Shown here one piece after another: positions 25,983 to 30,135 of a stretch of DNA of 64,000 nucleotides. The stretch's first letter is position 1. Every line of letters begins with the position of its first letter. The translations under genes were made by a program, and so were the position numbers. Source of the stretch: Dehalococcoidia bacterium (GTDB taxonomy: Bacteria > Chloroflexota > Dehalococcoidia > UBA2979); assembly GCA_963692775.1 (NCBI GenBank), contig OY839116.1, positions 1,542,544 through 1,606,543 on the forward strand, given 5' to 3'. Under the pieces are notes generated by a model, which ran no database searches, was not told where the DNA came from, and worked only from the letters and a program-made list of their open reading frames with translations.

Positions 25983-27266
25983 TCACGCCGCGAGGATCGC
26001 GCCGAGCCGGTCCGCCGAGGCGGAGGGGCCGACGACGGCGAGCGCGTATTCGCCGCCGAACAGCCGCTGCGCGACGGCCTGCATGTCGGCGGCCTCGACG
26101 GCGCGGATGCGCTCGACGGTGTCGCCGGGCAGCTCGATCTCGCCGTCCTGCAGCAGCTGCGTGCCGAAGTGCTGGCCGAGCGCCATCGGCGTCTCCATCG
26201 AGAGGCGGAAGGTTCCGGCGGCGAAGTCCTTGGCGCGCTGCAACTCCTCGACGCTCACGGGCTCGGCGGCGGCGCGCCGCAGCTCGGCGACGATCACCTG
26301 CAGCGCCTCCTCCTGCTGATCGCGCGAGACGCCCGCGCTGACCACGAAGGAGCCGATGTCCTGGTGCTGCGCGACGCCCGAGGCGACCGAGTAGGCGAGC
26401 CCTCGGCGCTCGCGCACCTCCTGGAAGAGCCGCGAGGACATGCCGCGCCCCAGCACGGTGTGCAGCAGCGCCAGCGCGTAGCGGTCCGGGTCGCGGCGCG
26501 CCGGACCCTGCACCGCGAGGCGGATGTTGGTCTGCTCGATCTCGCGCTCCTCGATGATGATCGATTCCTCCGGCAGGCCGTGCTCGGCGGCCGAAGGCTC
26601 CCGGGCCGCGCCGTCGCGCAGGCCGTCGAAGCACTCCGCGGCTGCCTCGGTCACCCAGTCGTGCGTGACGTTGCCGGCGACGGACAGCACCGAGTTCTCC
26701 GCGCCGTAGAAGCGCTCGACGTGGGAGACGAAGTCGTCGCGGGTGAGCGCCTCGACGGTCTCGATCGAGCCGGTGACGGGCCAGCCGATCGGCTGGTCGC
26801 CGTAGACGGCGCGCACCATCAGCTCGGAGGCGCGGGAGGCCGGGGCGTCGTGGCCGCGGCGGATCTCCTGCTGGACCACCGTGCGCTCGCGGTCGATCTC
26901 CTCGCTGTCGAGCAGGGAGCGCTGGATCATGTCGGCCAGCACCTCGACGCCGGTGGCGGCCCGCTCGAAGGGCATGTTGTTCCAGTAGCAGGTCAGCTCG
27001 CGCGAGGTGTAAGCGTTGAGGGCGCCGCCGGCGCCCTCGATCGCCTCGCTGATCTCCGGTGCGGTGGGGCGCGTCGAGGTGCCCTTGAAGAGCATGTGCT
27101 CCAGGTAGTGGGAGACGCCGTTGGTGCGCGGATCCTCGTCGCGCGAGCCGACGCCGACGAAGAAGGAGACGCTGGCGCTCTGGGCGGTGGGGACGGGCGT
27201 GGTGATGACGCGCAGGCCGTTGGGCAGCGTGCTGATCTGCGGTTGGATCGCCTCGGCGGGTGGCAT
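25983..27266 (-). CDS. M16 family zinc peptidase (insulinase/PqqL-like)
   Basis: Inverted zinc motif GVSHYLEHMLFKGT (HxxEH) and downstream E. Confidence 0.8.
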   Translation of the reverse strand: MPPAEAIQPQISTLPNGLRVITTPVPTAQSASVSFFVGVGSRDEDPRTNGVSHYLEHMLFKGTSTRPTAPEISEAIEGAGGALNAYTSRELTCYWNNMPFERAATGVEVLADMIQRSLLDSEEIDRERTVVQQEIRRGHDAPASRASELMVRAVYGDQPIGWPVTGSIETVEALTRDDFVSHVERFYGAENSVLSVAGNVTHDWVTEAAAECFDGLRDGAAREPSAAEHGLPEESIIIEEREIEQTNIRLAVQGPARRDPDRYALALLHTVLGRGMSSRLFQEVRERRGLAYSVASGVAQHQDIGSFVVSAGVSRDQQEEALQVIVAELRRAAAEPVSVEELQRAKDFAAGTFRLSMETPMALGQHFGTQLLQDGEIELPGDTVERIRAVEAADMQAVAQRLFGGEYALAVVGPSASADRLGAILAA

Positions 27267-27392
27267 CTGTGCGCCTCTCTAGTCGCGGGGCCTCGGGGGC
27301 CCTCGAACGCACGCGGCTCAGCGTACGGCGGGCGTGCTGCGTCGGCAAGGAATGCGGATGGCTGCCTGAGATCTCTCTTGGCAGTTGAGGTG

Positions 27393-27427
27393 ACACACGG
27401 CTAGAGTGTGTTTACGGGTTAGCCGTG
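27393..27427 (+). promoter_or_regulatory. nested inverted repeats (ACACAC-n7-GTGTGT and CACGGCTA-n16-TAGCCGTG), putative operator of the Panacea operon
   Basis: Seen directly in sequence just upstream of and overlapping the annotated GTG of the DUF4065 gene. Confidence 0.45.
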
Positions 27428-28032
27428 CAAGAGGCTGGTCGTGTTGGCTGTGCACAGTCACGATAACGGAGGAGGCACTGGCCAGGACCTTCGACAGCAG
27501 TAAGTTTCGGGAGCTCGTTCTCTATGTGGCCGAGGAGTCGGAGGAGGATCCGCGCTTCGGAGCCACGAAGCTCAACAAGATCCTGTACTTCAGCGACTTC
27601 AAGGCGTTCGGAATGCTCGGCGAGTCGATCACTGGTGCTACGTACCAGCGCCTGGACAGAGGACCTGCCCCCCGGGAGCTGCTTCCAGCCCTGCGCTCAA
27701 TGGAGGCGGAGGGGGAACTCGAACGCTTCGAACGGCGCTACTTCAATCGCCCGCAGAAGGTGATCCGCCCACTGCGAGGGTCGGAAGCGAGCGAGGTCCT
27801 CGATCCCGCCGAACTTGCCATCGTAGATGCGGTGCTCGCCGACCTCCGGGAGCTCAACGCGTCGCAAGTTAGCGCGCTGTCGCACCTCGAGGCGGGGTGG
27901 AGGCTCGCGCGTGACCGCGAGGAGATCCCCTACGAGACCGTGTACATCTCGGACCGCCAGCCCACGCCGACCGAGGTCGCGGCGTGGGAGCGGGCGCTGG
28001 CGGAACGACGTGCCAAGAGATCTTCCTCGTGA
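27406..28032 (+). CDS. Panacea (DUF4065) domain protein, putative PanA-type antitoxin
   Basis: GATKLNKILYFSDFKAFGMLGESITGATYQRLDRGPAPRELLPAL matches the DUF4065 core; start uncertain (GTG 27406 lies inside the inverted repeat; a GGAGGAGG RBS sits at 27467-27474). Confidence 0.6.
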   Translation: MCLRVSRARGWSCWLCTVTITEEALARTFDSSKFRELVLYVAEESEEDPRFGATKLNKILYFSDFKAFGMLGESITGATYQRLDRGPAPRELLPALRSMEAEGELERFERRYFNRPQKVIRPLRGSEASEVLDPAELAIVDAVLADLRELNASQVSALSHLEAGWRLARDREEIPYETVYISDRQPTPTEVAAWERALAERRAKRSSS

Positions 28033-28099
28033 GCAGCCGCCAAGCCGCTGGACACACCACTTCGAGGTAACGCCCGAGTTCTCGGAGCAACTTGGCTCG

Positions 28100-28399
28100 G
28101 TGGCCCCGGCAGCCGTGGCGCGGGGGCATCTGCTCGATCGCGGCATCAAGCACGTCCTCGATCGCGAGATCGAGGCGTACCGGGAAGGCCTGGAACCCCC
28201 ACGGATCAAGGTCGTTGAAGGCGACGAACCGATCCGCGAGGGGCTGCTCCTCACAGAGCCGGGATTCCCGGACGTGCCGGAGTGCATGGTCTGGTTCGAG
28301 TTCCATGCTGATTTCGAGCGAAGTCGCGATGTGATCCTCTGGGGCATCGGGCGTGTCCCGGTTCTGGATGAGATTGAGGACTACACAGGCGATCCGTAG
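28100..28399 (+). CDS. small hypothetical protein (99 aa), putative toxin partner of the Panacea protein
   Basis: First in-frame start (GTG 28100) lies 68 nt after the Panacea stop; no ATG/GTG/TTG earlier; sequence ...CMVWFEFHADFERSRDVILWGIGRVPVLDEIEDYTGDP. Confidence 0.4.
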   Translation: MAPAAVARGHLLDRGIKHVLDREIEAYREGLEPPRIKVVEGDEPIREGLLLTEPGFPDVPECMVWFEFHADFERSRDVILWGIGRVPVLDEIEDYTGDP

Positions 28400-28433
28400 T
28401 GGGCTACCTCAGCTTGGTTGCACACCCCGATCG

Positions 28434-28462
28434 TTGACACCTTCGCGCCGCGCGCGGAATAT
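28434..28462 (+). promoter_or_regulatory. sigma-70-like promoter TTGACA-n17-GAATAT upstream of pyrG
   Basis: Direct sequence match about 33 nt upstream of the pyrG ATG. Confidence 0.5.
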
Positions 28463-28494
28463 GGTCCGTGTCCTCCCCAACCATCCGAGGGCTG

Positions 28495-30135
28495 ATGCCG
28501 AAGTACATCTTCGTCACGGGCGGCGTCGTGAGCTCCGTCGGCAAGGGGATCGTCACCGCCTCGCTCGGCCGCATCCTGCGCGCACGCGGCCTCCGCGTCT
28601 CCGTCCTCAAACTCGACCCCTACATCAACGTCGACCCCGGCACGATGTCCCCGTACCAGCACGGCGAGGTGTTCGTCACCGACGACGGCGCCGAGACAGA
28701 CCTGGACCTCGGGCACTACGAGCGCTTCCTCGACGAGAACTTCTCGCAGGCCAACTCCACCTCCTCCGGCCAGATCTACGAGGAGGTGATCCGCAAGGAG
28801 CGGCACGGCGACTTCCTCGGCGGCACCATCCAGCAGATCCCGCACGTCACCAACGAGATCCGGCGGCGCATCCGCGAGGCGGGCAGCGCGCTGGACGCCG
28901 AGGTCGTGATCGTCGAGGTCGGCGGCACGATCGGCGACATCGAGAGCCAGCCGTTCATCGAGGCGATCGGGCAGATGCGGCACACGCTCGGCGTGGACGC
29001 GACGGCCTCGATCCACGTCACGCTGCTGCCCTACATCGGCTCGACGCGCGAGCTGAAGACCAAGCCGACGCAGCACTCGGTGCGCGAGCTGCGCTCCTTC
29101 GGCATCCAGCCCGACGTGATCATCGCGCGCGCCGACCAGCCGGCGCCGGAGGCGCTGCGCGAGAAGATCGGCCTCTTCTGCAACGTCGAGCGCGAGGCGG
29201 TGATCCCCCTCCAGACGGCCGAATCGATCTACGAGATACCGCTGGTCCTCGAGGCGTGCGGGCTCGCCGACCTCGTGCTGAAGCGCATCGGCATCGAGAC
29301 GCCCGCGTCCGATCTCGACGACTGGCGGGAGTTCGTCCAGCGGCTGCGCAACCCCGACTCCGAGGTGCGCATCGCCGTGGTCGGCAAGTACGTGGAGTTG
29401 CACGACGCGTACCTGTCGATCCGCGAGGCGCTGATCCACGCCGCCGTCTTCCACCGCGCGCACGTCAACTTCCACTGGGTGCATTCCGAGGAGCTGGACA
29501 CGCGGCCGCCCGAGGAGGCGATCGGCGACGTGGACGGCATCCTCGTGTGCCCCGGGTTTGGCGACCGCGGACTGGAAGGGAAGATCTCCGCCGCCACGTA
29601 CGCGCGGGAGCAGCGCATCCCCTACTTCGGCGTCTGCCTCGGCCTGCAGATGATGGTCTGCGAGTTCGCCCGCAACGTGGCCGGGATGCCGGAGGCGAAC
29701 ACCACCGAGGCCGACCCGCGCACCCCGTTCCCGGTGATCTCGTTGCTCTCCGAGCAGCGCGGCATCGAGGACTACGGCGGCACGATGCGCCTCGGAGGCT
29801 TCGATTGCCGGCTGGTCGAGGGGACGCACGCCGCCGCCGCCTACGGGCGGGAGCAGGTGCGGGAGCGGCACCGCCACCGCTACGAGGTCAACAACGCGCT
29901 GTTGCCGGTGCTGGAGCAGCACGGCCTGATCGCGTCCGGTTGCTCGCCGAACGGCGAGCTGGTCGAGATCATGGAGCTGCGCGACCACCCGTGGATGCTG
30001 GGGACGCAGTTCCACCCGGAGTTCACCTCGCGGCCGCTGCGGCCGCAGCCGCTGTTCCGTGACTTCGTGGGCGCGGCGTTGCGGCGCCGGTCGAGCGTCG
30101 GGCAGGCGGCCGCCTCGCAGGCGTCGGCGCCGTGA
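28495..30135 (+). CDS. pyrG: CTP synthase
   Basis: N-terminus MPKYIFVTGGVVSSVGKG, glutamine amidotransferase domain GVCLGLQ; ATG at 28495. Confidence 0.95.
   Translation: MPKYIFVTGGVVSSVGKGIVTASLGRILRARGLRVSVLKLDPYINVDPGTMSPYQHGEVFVTDDGAETDLDLGHYERFLDENFSQANSTSSGQIYEEVIRKERHGDFLGGTIQQIPHVTNEIRRRIREAGSALDAEVVIVEVGGTIGDIESQPFIEAIGQMRHTLGVDATASIHVTLLPYIGSTRELKTKPTQHSVRELRSFGIQPDVIIARADQPAPEALREKIGLFCNVEREAVIPLQTAESIYEIPLVLEACGLADLVLKRIGIETPASDLDDWREFVQRLRNPDSEVRIAVVGKYVELHDAYLSIREALIHAAVFHRAHVNFHWVHSEELDTRPPEEAIGDVDGILVCPGFGDRGLEGKISAATYAREQRIPYFGVCLGLQMMVCEFARNVAGMPEANTTEADPRTPFPVISLLSEQRGIEDYGGTMRLGGFDCRLVEGTHAAAAYGREQVRERHRHRYEVNNALLPVLEQHGLIASGCSPNGELVEIMELRDHPWMLGTQFHPEFTSRPLRPQPLFRDFVGAALRRRSSVGQAAASQASAP

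Follow-up and report, generated by a model that had tools for sequence, protein, structure and literature searches.

A stand-alone Panacea protein and an orphan acidic partner form a candidate toxin-antitoxin pair beside pyrG in Dehalococcoidia

Results

Two overlapping genes between an M16 peptidase gene and pyrG

We analyzed a 64,000-nucleotide stretch of the genome of a Dehalococcoidia bacterium (assembly GCA_963692775.1, contig OY839116.1, positions 1,542,544 to 1,606,543), hereafter called the window, and focused on two overlapping open reading frames (ORFs) of its plus strand, ORF1 and ORF2. As the initial annotation of this DNA had stated, they lie between a gene for an M16 peptidase and pyrG (Table 1). 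ORF1 encodes a Panacea-domain protein and ORF2 a small acidic protein, and we propose that together they may form a chromosomal toxin-antitoxin (TA) module of the PanA-PanT type. The pair sits between the M16 peptidase gene and pyrG in at least 10 Chloroflexi/Dehalococcoidia genomes. Our syntenic comparison set the window against ten such loci, drawn from metagenome assemblies (L001/L002, which are one locus in two copies, L003, L004, L010, L011, and L014) and from GTDB, where L005 to L009 are metagenome-assembled genomes (MAGs) labeled Chloroflexi or Dehalococcoidia bacterium.

Table 1. Features of the ORF1-ORF2 locus, in positions of the window
Feature	Position	Strand	Remarks
ORF1, stand-alone Panacea protein (PanA-like), 184 aa	27478-28032	+	PF13274; probable CTG start
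ORF2, acidic partner (candidate PanT), orphan family, 129 aa	28010-28399	+	GTG start inside ORF1, 23-nt overlap
Predicted sigma-70-type promoter of the pair, TTGGCA-18-TAGAGT	27378-27407	+	Putative function
Shine-Dalgarno-like element GGAGGAGG	27469-27476	+	Directly before the ORF1 start; read from the sequence
Two overlapping inverted repeats	27393-27427		Cover the -10 box and the first part of the leader
M16 peptidase gene	25983-27266	-	PF00675 and PF05193; divergent from the pair
pyrG (CTP synthase)	ATG at 28495	+	PF06418 and PF00117; downstream of the pair
pyrG promoter-like element (TTGACA-17-GAATAT) and leader	28434-28494	+	Boundary feature, outside the pair

ORF1 is a stand-alone Panacea protein with a probable CTG start

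The assignment of ORF1 to the DUF4065/Panacea family, made in the initial annotation, holds on profile search: ORF1 matches the Pfam entry SocA_Panacea (PF13274) with an E value of 4.1e-15 and 57.1 bits (cut-off, 25.7) over positions 1 to 112 of the 113 in the model. The domain covers approximately residues 32 to 141 and is followed by a conserved C-terminal extension of ∼43 amino acids (aa). The Pfam search revealed no domain besides Panacea, and neither a helix-turn-helix nor another DNA-binding domain. The subfamily of ORF1, with proteins of ∼183 aa, is well populated, and its named members come from MAGs of Dehalococcoidia, Chloroflexi, and Dormibacteraeota; we found 444 homologs at an E value of <1e-5, the top 120 of which are 47 to 97% identical to ORF1. 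Two homologs carry the NCBI name "SocA family protein," and ORF1 itself scored 12.4 bits against the NCBIfam SocA equivalog model NF047745, below the cut-off of 190, and gave no PADLOC match at an E value of ≤1. Compared with the window, the syntenic ORF1 sequences have ratios of nonsynonymous to synonymous divergence (dN/dS) of 0.05 to 0.14, with dS reaching saturation.

Comparison of the loci indicates that ORF1 most likely starts at the CTG codon at position 27478. Of 10 syntenic loci, 9 have CTG here (the window, L003 to L005, and L007 to L011) and L001 has TTG, and distant homologs have ATG or GTG at the matching residue. In all syntenic loci, a purine-rich GGAG/GGGGG element lies 5 to 10 nt ahead of the start codon. 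The sole canonical in-frame start farther upstream, GTG at 27406, would yield a protein of 208 aa. We rejected it because the upstream frame is unconserved, the added stretch varying in both sequence and length, and because L004, L007, L010, and L001 have an in-frame stop upstream of ORF1 and no canonical start in between. In the window, this GTG also falls inside the predicted -10 box of the promoter.

ORF2 is a full-length gene of 129 codons under purifying selection

The partner gene had initially been annotated as a 99-aa ORF located 68 nt downstream of ORF1; this gene model did not hold, as the gene actually starts at GTG 28010, within the end of ORF1. In tblastn searches, residues 1 to 129 of ORF2 matched in all syntenic loci, and of 11 loci, 10 share the GTG start codon and one, L004, has ATG instead. 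Codons 9 to 21 are free of constraint from ORF1 because they lie downstream of its stop codon, and here the proportion of nonsynonymous differences (pN) is 0.03 to 0.15, versus 0.12 to 1.0 for synonymous ones (pS). The full-length matches, the conserved start, and the low pN in codons 9 to 21 therefore define ORF2 as the complete stretch given in Table 1. The 99-aa form, which begins at GTG 28100, is a truncation of ORF2, as are several database gene calls of 81 to 110 aa. Over its entire length, ORF2 has dN/dS ratios of 0.10 to 0.23 relative to the window, with dS reaching saturation. ORF2 is a real gene under purifying selection, and the reading that it is a spurious ORF is excluded.

One contig of the comparison, L011 (ena:ERZ24894577:ctg451531l), is a low-coverage long-read contig in which ORF1, the M16 gene, pyrG, and rho are all broken up by frameshifts. 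These frameshifts account for aberrant ORF2 forms of 110 and 140 aa with a foreign C terminus (e.g., P0003).

ORF2 has a confidently predicted fold and belongs to no described family

We then examined the ORF2 protein. Only F24, R38, and G78 are invariant or nearly so in an alignment of 19 sequences. Conservation also extends to a loop (G-L-L-L-T-E-P-G), a strand (V-P-E-C-x-V-W-F), and the acidic tail (L-D-E-x-E-D-Y-S); the N terminus, which bears a P-E-Q-P-P motif, is predicted with low confidence. AlphaFold2 gave a predicted local distance difference test (pLDDT) score of 75 from an alignment of 9 sequences and of 86.5 from the 19-sequence alignment, with a predicted template modeling (TM) score of 0.76, and the five models from the larger alignment agree with each other (pLDDT, 79 to 86.5). 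The predicted topology is β1(17-20)-α1(22-31)-α2(35-58)-β(66-69)-β(75-81)-β(92-99)-β(107-115). The Kyte-Doolittle hydropathy over 19 residues does not exceed 0.64, so ORF2 is expected to be soluble and without a membrane helix.

Sequence and structure searches returned no relative of known function. ORF2 had no match in Pfam, NCBIfam, PADLOC (E value of ≤1), or PHROGs at permissive thresholds, and profile searches of PDB sequences yielded nothing at an E value of ≤10. With Foldseek, the ORF2 model was compared to 350,542 PDB chains, and the best hit had an E value of 0.19, with TM scores of ≤0.31; a first, weaker model had a best E value of 0.14 against PDB. Only insignificant matches were obtained in BFVD. 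We found no domain or fold match to MazF/PemK, MqsR, Fic/Doc, or toxSAS and no transmembrane segment. The order of the secondary structure elements had prompted us to consider ORF2 as a RelE/ParE protein, and this candidate was rejected after two Foldseek searches of PDB and several profile searches were negative; a ParE chimera ranked no higher than 16th (E value, 0.7), and only in the Foldseek search with the weaker first model.

The ORF2 family itself is extremely rare. Searching 5.8 billion proteins by word index gave 8 clusters, and 1.84 billion representatives searched exhaustively with HMMER gave 18. All the clusters that we checked are metagenomic, and none has an NCBI accession. No further members came from the 5.8-billion-protein database when it was searched with a profile of a diverse ORF2 alignment (A2), and a scan with a narrower one (A3) recovered one metagenome locus and no viral locus. 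The initial annotation had described the partner as lacking a recognizable family, and this description extends to the family, defense, phage, and structure databases: on the sequence comparisons made here, ORF2 belongs to no described family.

The Panacea gene accompanies ORF2 in different genomic contexts

Outside the syntenic clade, distant ORF2 relatives (30 to 43% identity) were traced to seven other contexts, five of which could be identified; the flanking genes at these loci were rpoB-rpoC, rplI-dnaB, an Asp/Glu racemase gene, ilvC, and a gene for an EF-Tu-type GTPase. Two loci (L012 and L018) were left out of the count of pairing, as their contigs end before the upstream position. In all five loci with upstream DNA on the contig, a Panacea gene of ∼180 aa abuts or overlaps the distant partner gene: the two overlap by 38 nt in L015 and L017 and by 29 nt in L019, abut in L016, and are separated by a 4-nt gap in L013. 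PF13274 is annotated on the gene upstream of the partner in L001 to L004, L010, L013, L015, L017, and L019 and was found by scan in L016. Since the pairing is kept while the flanks differ, ORF1 and ORF2 form an obligate two-gene unit that occupies several chromosomal sites. Conservation beyond the window, on which the initial annotation had made its proposal depend, is thus observed for the pair, across divergent members as well as contexts, and its partner gene evolves under purifying selection.

Prediction of PanA-PanT loci in the published survey relied on genes no more than 100 nt apart and conserved in at least two species, with the antitoxin-first order being the commoner one (PMC8832971). 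Here, 10 syntenic genomes and 5 independent contexts contain both genes, with a spacing that ranges from the 23-nt overlap of the window to overlaps of 29 to 38 nt, 0 nt, or a 4-nt gap elsewhere, with the caveat that pyrG is a third cistron in four loci. The locus thus qualifies as PanAT-like in the published in silico sense. Of the TA-type pair initially proposed, the Panacea domain and the arrangement of the locus stood; the gene model of the partner and the operator (see below) did not.

In six independent contexts (the window, L012, L015, L017, L018, and L019), the pair is followed in the same orientation by a core housekeeping gene: pyrG, rpoBC, rplI-dnaB, the racemase gene, ilvC, or the EF-Tu-type GTPase gene. 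This may be a coincidence in compact genomes, or it may reflect a preference for such sites.

The pair is inherited with its housekeeping flanks and has an atypical composition

Across the syntenic clade, identity to the window ranges from 76 to 99% for ORF1 and from 62 to 94% for ORF2, versus 76 to 96% for pyrG, 73 to 97% for the M16 peptidase, and 80 to 97% for DUF2269. The dN of ORF1 tracks that of the M16, pyrG, and DUF2269 flanks, and ORF2 evolves somewhat faster. In the more divergent locus L019, which has rpoBC downstream, ORF1, ORF2, and M16 are 61%, 37%, and 64% identical to their counterparts in the window, and the M16 gene lies 4.6 kb from the pair; arrangement and identities are consistent with long vertical descent. 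Where ORF1 is 65 to 70% identical, ORF2 is only 31 to 43% identical. ORF2 thus diverges much faster, and the true ORF2 family is therefore probably larger than what can be detected.

The pair also stands out by its codon composition. Its GC content at third codon positions (GC3) is 0.64 to 0.82, versus 0.91 to 0.97 for the neighboring genes, in all ten genomes examined (the window, L001, L003 to L005, L007, L008, L010, L014, and L019), and its dS is 2 to 3 times that of the flanks. The oddity in GC3 persists despite an apparently long vertical inheritance. Together with the CTG start, the low GC3 and the high dS suggest either a foreign origin that was never ameliorated or selection for poor translation.

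A predicted promoter precedes the pair, and the inverted repeats are unlikely to be functional

A scan of positions 27200 to 28550 revealed a single promoter-like site, TTGGCA-18-TAGAGT, where 0.2 is expected from shuffled sequences. Across 9 syntenic loci, conservation in the spacer is highest in the -35 core of this site, TCTTGGCA (27376-27383; CTTGGCA in L005 and L003), and in its TAGAG core. The initial annotation had reported a nested inverted-repeat operator upstream of ORF1. Both repeats do exist, ACACAC/GTGTGT at 27393-98/27406-11 and CACGGCTA/TAGCCGTG at 27396-403/27420-27, but we rejected the operator reading because they occur at chance level, are not conserved, and precede a protein without a DNA-binding domain. 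Dinucleotide shuffling of the 211-nt spacer produced a perfect 8-bp inverted repeat in 8% of cases and a 6-bp one in 70%, and when the window was cut into 303 tiles of the size of the spacer, 89 of them (29%) contained a perfect 8-bp repeat. The 8-bp repeat is kept only in L005, the nearest relative, and is degraded or replaced in L007, L008, L003, L010, L004, and L001. A role as an RNA hairpin was rejected as well: RNAalifold found no consensus structure in the alignment (-0.98 kcal/mol), and no Rfam family matched. The conserved palindromic operator and the DNA-binding antitoxin of an autoregulated type II TA operon were thus not found at this locus, and it has been argued that Panacea itself is probably no autoregulator (Ernits et al. 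2023, PMC10440598).

The junction with pyrG differs between genomes. In the window, L003, and L005 to L009, a promoter-like element and leader upstream of pyrG are nearly invariant. The leader, GGTCCGTGTCCTCCCCAACCATCCGAGGGCTG, is 32 nt long and has no Rfam match; it could be regulatory. L004, L010, L014, and L001 lack the element, and pyrG starts 7 to 10 nt past the ORF2 stop codon or overlaps ORF2. A simple scan found no internal promoter in L004 and L001. Since these four loci leave no room for a promoter, their arrangement points to pyrG, an essential gene, being probably cotranscribed with the pair in a constitutive manner.

Two further observations concern the neighboring genes. On the minus strand, a divergent promoter-like element of the M16 gene (TTGCCG-17-TACGCT, 27320-27348) is conserved, and its block TCAGCGTACG is nearly invariant across nine loci, with one substitution in L005. 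Within pyrG, a 569-codon ORF (28353-30062, plus strand) remains open in a noncoding frame because of the extreme GC3, with 59 to 83% identity between genomes, and calls for caution in any ORF-based reading of the window.

Viral contigs carry related Panacea cassettes

ORF1 relatives on sequenced phages and plasmids are only 24 to 29% identical to ORF1. In IMG/VR, seven contigs contain Panacea proteins with 32 to 45% identity and the same ∼185-aa architecture, and in six of the seven, an ORF of 88 to 100 aa directly follows the Panacea gene or overlaps its 3' end. Neighbors of these cassettes include a portal gene, a phage repressor with a moron, and a DNA methyltransferase gene, on one contig each. 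The 88- to 100-aa viral partners have no family match. Aligned with the ORF2 family by hhalign, they are collinear with it (P value, 0.002), with a probability of only 13%, and among 538 stop-to-stop ORFs from the viral loci, the partner in L020 ranked first with the hidden Markov model of the ORF2 family (E value, 0.049). These comparisons are suggestive of a distant homology between the viral partners and ORF2, and the pair of the Chloroflexi may have branched off from a Panacea cassette of phages and become fixed in the chromosome. In one viral contig, L021, the Panacea gene is followed by a gene for a 178-aa zinc-ribbon/MqsA-like protein (L021:4538-5074) with weak matches to TIGR03830 and Lar, which is a case of partner swapping within the ORF1-related Panacea lineage.

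Discussion

Relation to known Panacea systems

The pair resembles stand-alone PanA-PanT modules (Kurata et al. 2022, PMC8832971; Ernits et al. 2023, PMC10440598) in several respects: PF13274 occurs without an N-terminal helix-turn-helix, PAD1, or ZBD, the antitoxin gene comes first and overlaps that of a small "hypothetical" partner, and the chromosomal location goes along with relatives on prophage-like contigs. It differs in that ORF2 is not detectably related to the PanT domains described (MqsR, Fic/Doc, toxSAS, PemK/MazF, ParE, and membrane peptides), and in being vertically fixed at one locus across a clade, sometimes joined with pyrG in one operon, with a CTG start for the antitoxin gene. 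In Dataset S1 of Kurata et al. (PMC8832971), the Chloroflexi are represented by one pair, from Nitrolancea hollandica (PanA, WP_008476557.1; PanT, WP_008476559.1), which belongs to toxin cluster T1. This cluster shares with our pair the A|T gene order, overlapping or abutting genes, a "noNTD" PanA, a hypothetical partner, and one member of the same phylum. The T1 member that was tested, from Clostridium cadaveris, is labeled an mRNase and was toxic and not neutralized (Kurata et al., PMC8832971), whereas the ORF2 model matches no RNase fold, T1 having been compared by description only. RelE/ParE toxins resemble ORF2 in size and in the element order of its model (β1-α1-α2 and then an antiparallel sheet), but ORF2 has no profile or fold match to them and is not a member on present evidence. 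SocA-SocB of Caulobacter, a type VI system, also combines a Panacea-domain antitoxin with an antitoxin-first order; ORF1 differs in failing the SocA equivalog model, and the partners are unrelated.

A proposed PanA-PanT-type module with a new candidate toxin

Our preferred reading is that ORF1 and ORF2 constitute a chromosomal, type II-like PanA-PanT module with a new candidate toxin family, to which we assign a probability of roughly 0.5. Under this reading, one transcript would start from the predicted promoter, ORF1 would be translated from its weak CTG start, and translation of ORF2 would be coupled to it via the GTG located 23 nt inside the end of ORF1. By analogy with other stand-alone PanA proteins, ORF1 would bind ORF2 directly and keep it inactive, either through the Panacea core or through the conserved C-terminal extension, a short helical tail; both modes, direct neutralization and neutralization through C-terminal helices, are on record for stand-alone Panacea proteins (PMC10440598). 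A cue, possibly sensed by the Panacea domain, would then free ORF2. The ORF2 protein, predicted as a soluble α/β protein, would most likely bind a cellular target stoichiometrically and not work as an enzyme or membrane peptide, because no conserved set of catalytic residues is present. The CTG start and a GC3 of 0.73 to 0.80, versus 0.97 in the flanks, would suit a pair whose expression is kept low and count in favor of the module.

Several observations weigh against this reading and, with toxicity and binding being inferred, set our confidence. ORF2 is acidic (pI 4.68, with 27 D/E versus 14 K/R residues in 14.8 kDa), its 19-sequence alignment holds no conserved catalytic constellation, and neither the profile searches nor the comparison of its model with PDB matched a toxin family or fold. 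The comparisons within the clade indicate that the pair is inherited strictly vertically with housekeeping flanks, unlike the patchy and mobile loci typical of TA systems, and it is probably part of the pyrG operon in four genomes. ORF2 relatives were absent from GenBank phages, PLSDB plasmids, and IMG/VR. Finally, of 25 PanT candidates in the published screen, 9 were validated and 8 were nontoxic in Escherichia coli (PMC8832971).

Alternative explanations

Many of these observations would also be explained by the main alternative, a domesticated, nontoxic module, in which a Panacea sensor or adaptor controls a small acidic binding protein with a role in the host, fixed in the lineage and expressed with neighboring essential genes. 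The locus is kept across genomes whose pyrG and M16 proteins have diverged to as little as 76 and 73% identity (with maxima of 96 and 97%), ORF1 changes at about the pace of these flanks, L019 retains the pair 4.6 kb from M16 though rpoBC now lies downstream, and pyrG has joined the operon in four loci. ORF2, which was not found on phages or plasmids, has no catalytic signature, and its conserved acidic tail is typical of a protein-binding motif; Panacea has been proposed to be primarily a sensor (Ernits et al., PMC10440598). We nevertheless consider domestication rather unlikely, given that the pair appears in at least six unrelated contexts and so moves as a unit like TA cassettes, that its GC3 lies far below that of host genes in every genome, making it compositionally foreign or specially constrained, that related cassettes of Panacea and small-partner genes occur in phage contigs, and that no host function can be named. 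A broader and unlikely possibility is that ORF2 represents a new fold as well as a new family, being either a nonenzymatic toxin neutralized by Panacea or a host regulator under a domesticated Panacea sensor, in a near-core pair of this lineage beside pyrG and rpoBC.

SocB is a toxin that binds the replication clamp. In a SocAB-like (type VI) arrangement, ORF1, instead of sequestering ORF2, would be a proteolytic adaptor through which an intrinsically toxic ORF2 is continuously degraded by ClpXP. SocA is the founder of the Panacea-domain proteins, two ORF1 homologs bear its name at NCBI, and ORF1 is better conserved than ORF2, as expected if it also contacted a conserved protease; the score of 12.4 bits against a cut-off of 190 for NF047745, the lack of any described relative of ORF2, and its acidic C terminus, which is not a typical ClpX degron, make this arrangement quite improbable. 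Even less credit goes to the last pair of explanations, that the roles are reversed, with a growth-inhibiting ORF1 and an acidic ORF2 as neutralizer, or that ORF2 is a miscalled ORF of high-G+C DNA. The published screen did find toxicity in E. coli for three of the PanA proteins themselves (PMC8832971), and small acidic proteins are more often antitoxins, yet nothing positive supports a reversal here. High-GC DNA does yield long spurious ORFs in other frames, but a miscall is excluded by the dN/dS of 0.10 to 0.23 with saturated dS, by conservation down to 30% identity elsewhere, and by the confident and reproducible AlphaFold2 fold.

Significance

The promiscuity of Panacea is already established, with 88 toxin clusters, 41 of which have no known domain (PMC8832971). 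One more partner family for Panacea, as the PanA-PanT-type reading of ORF1 and ORF2 would provide, thus extends the catalog; it is not a new concept and does not overturn current views. With its confidently predicted fold, for which there is no solved counterpart, and without a catalytic signature, ORF2 could reveal a new mode or target of growth arrest. The pair may also be under selection to be expressed at a very low level, a possibility hinted at by the CTG start of ORF1 and a codon composition that has remained atypical. Fixed in uncultured, partly sponge-associated Chloroflexi, where it coevolves with its housekeeping flanks, the cassette is a natural test of TA domestication. If ORF2 indeed has a new fold in a near-core pair, a "TA-like" cassette would have been stably incorporated into the physiology of these cells.

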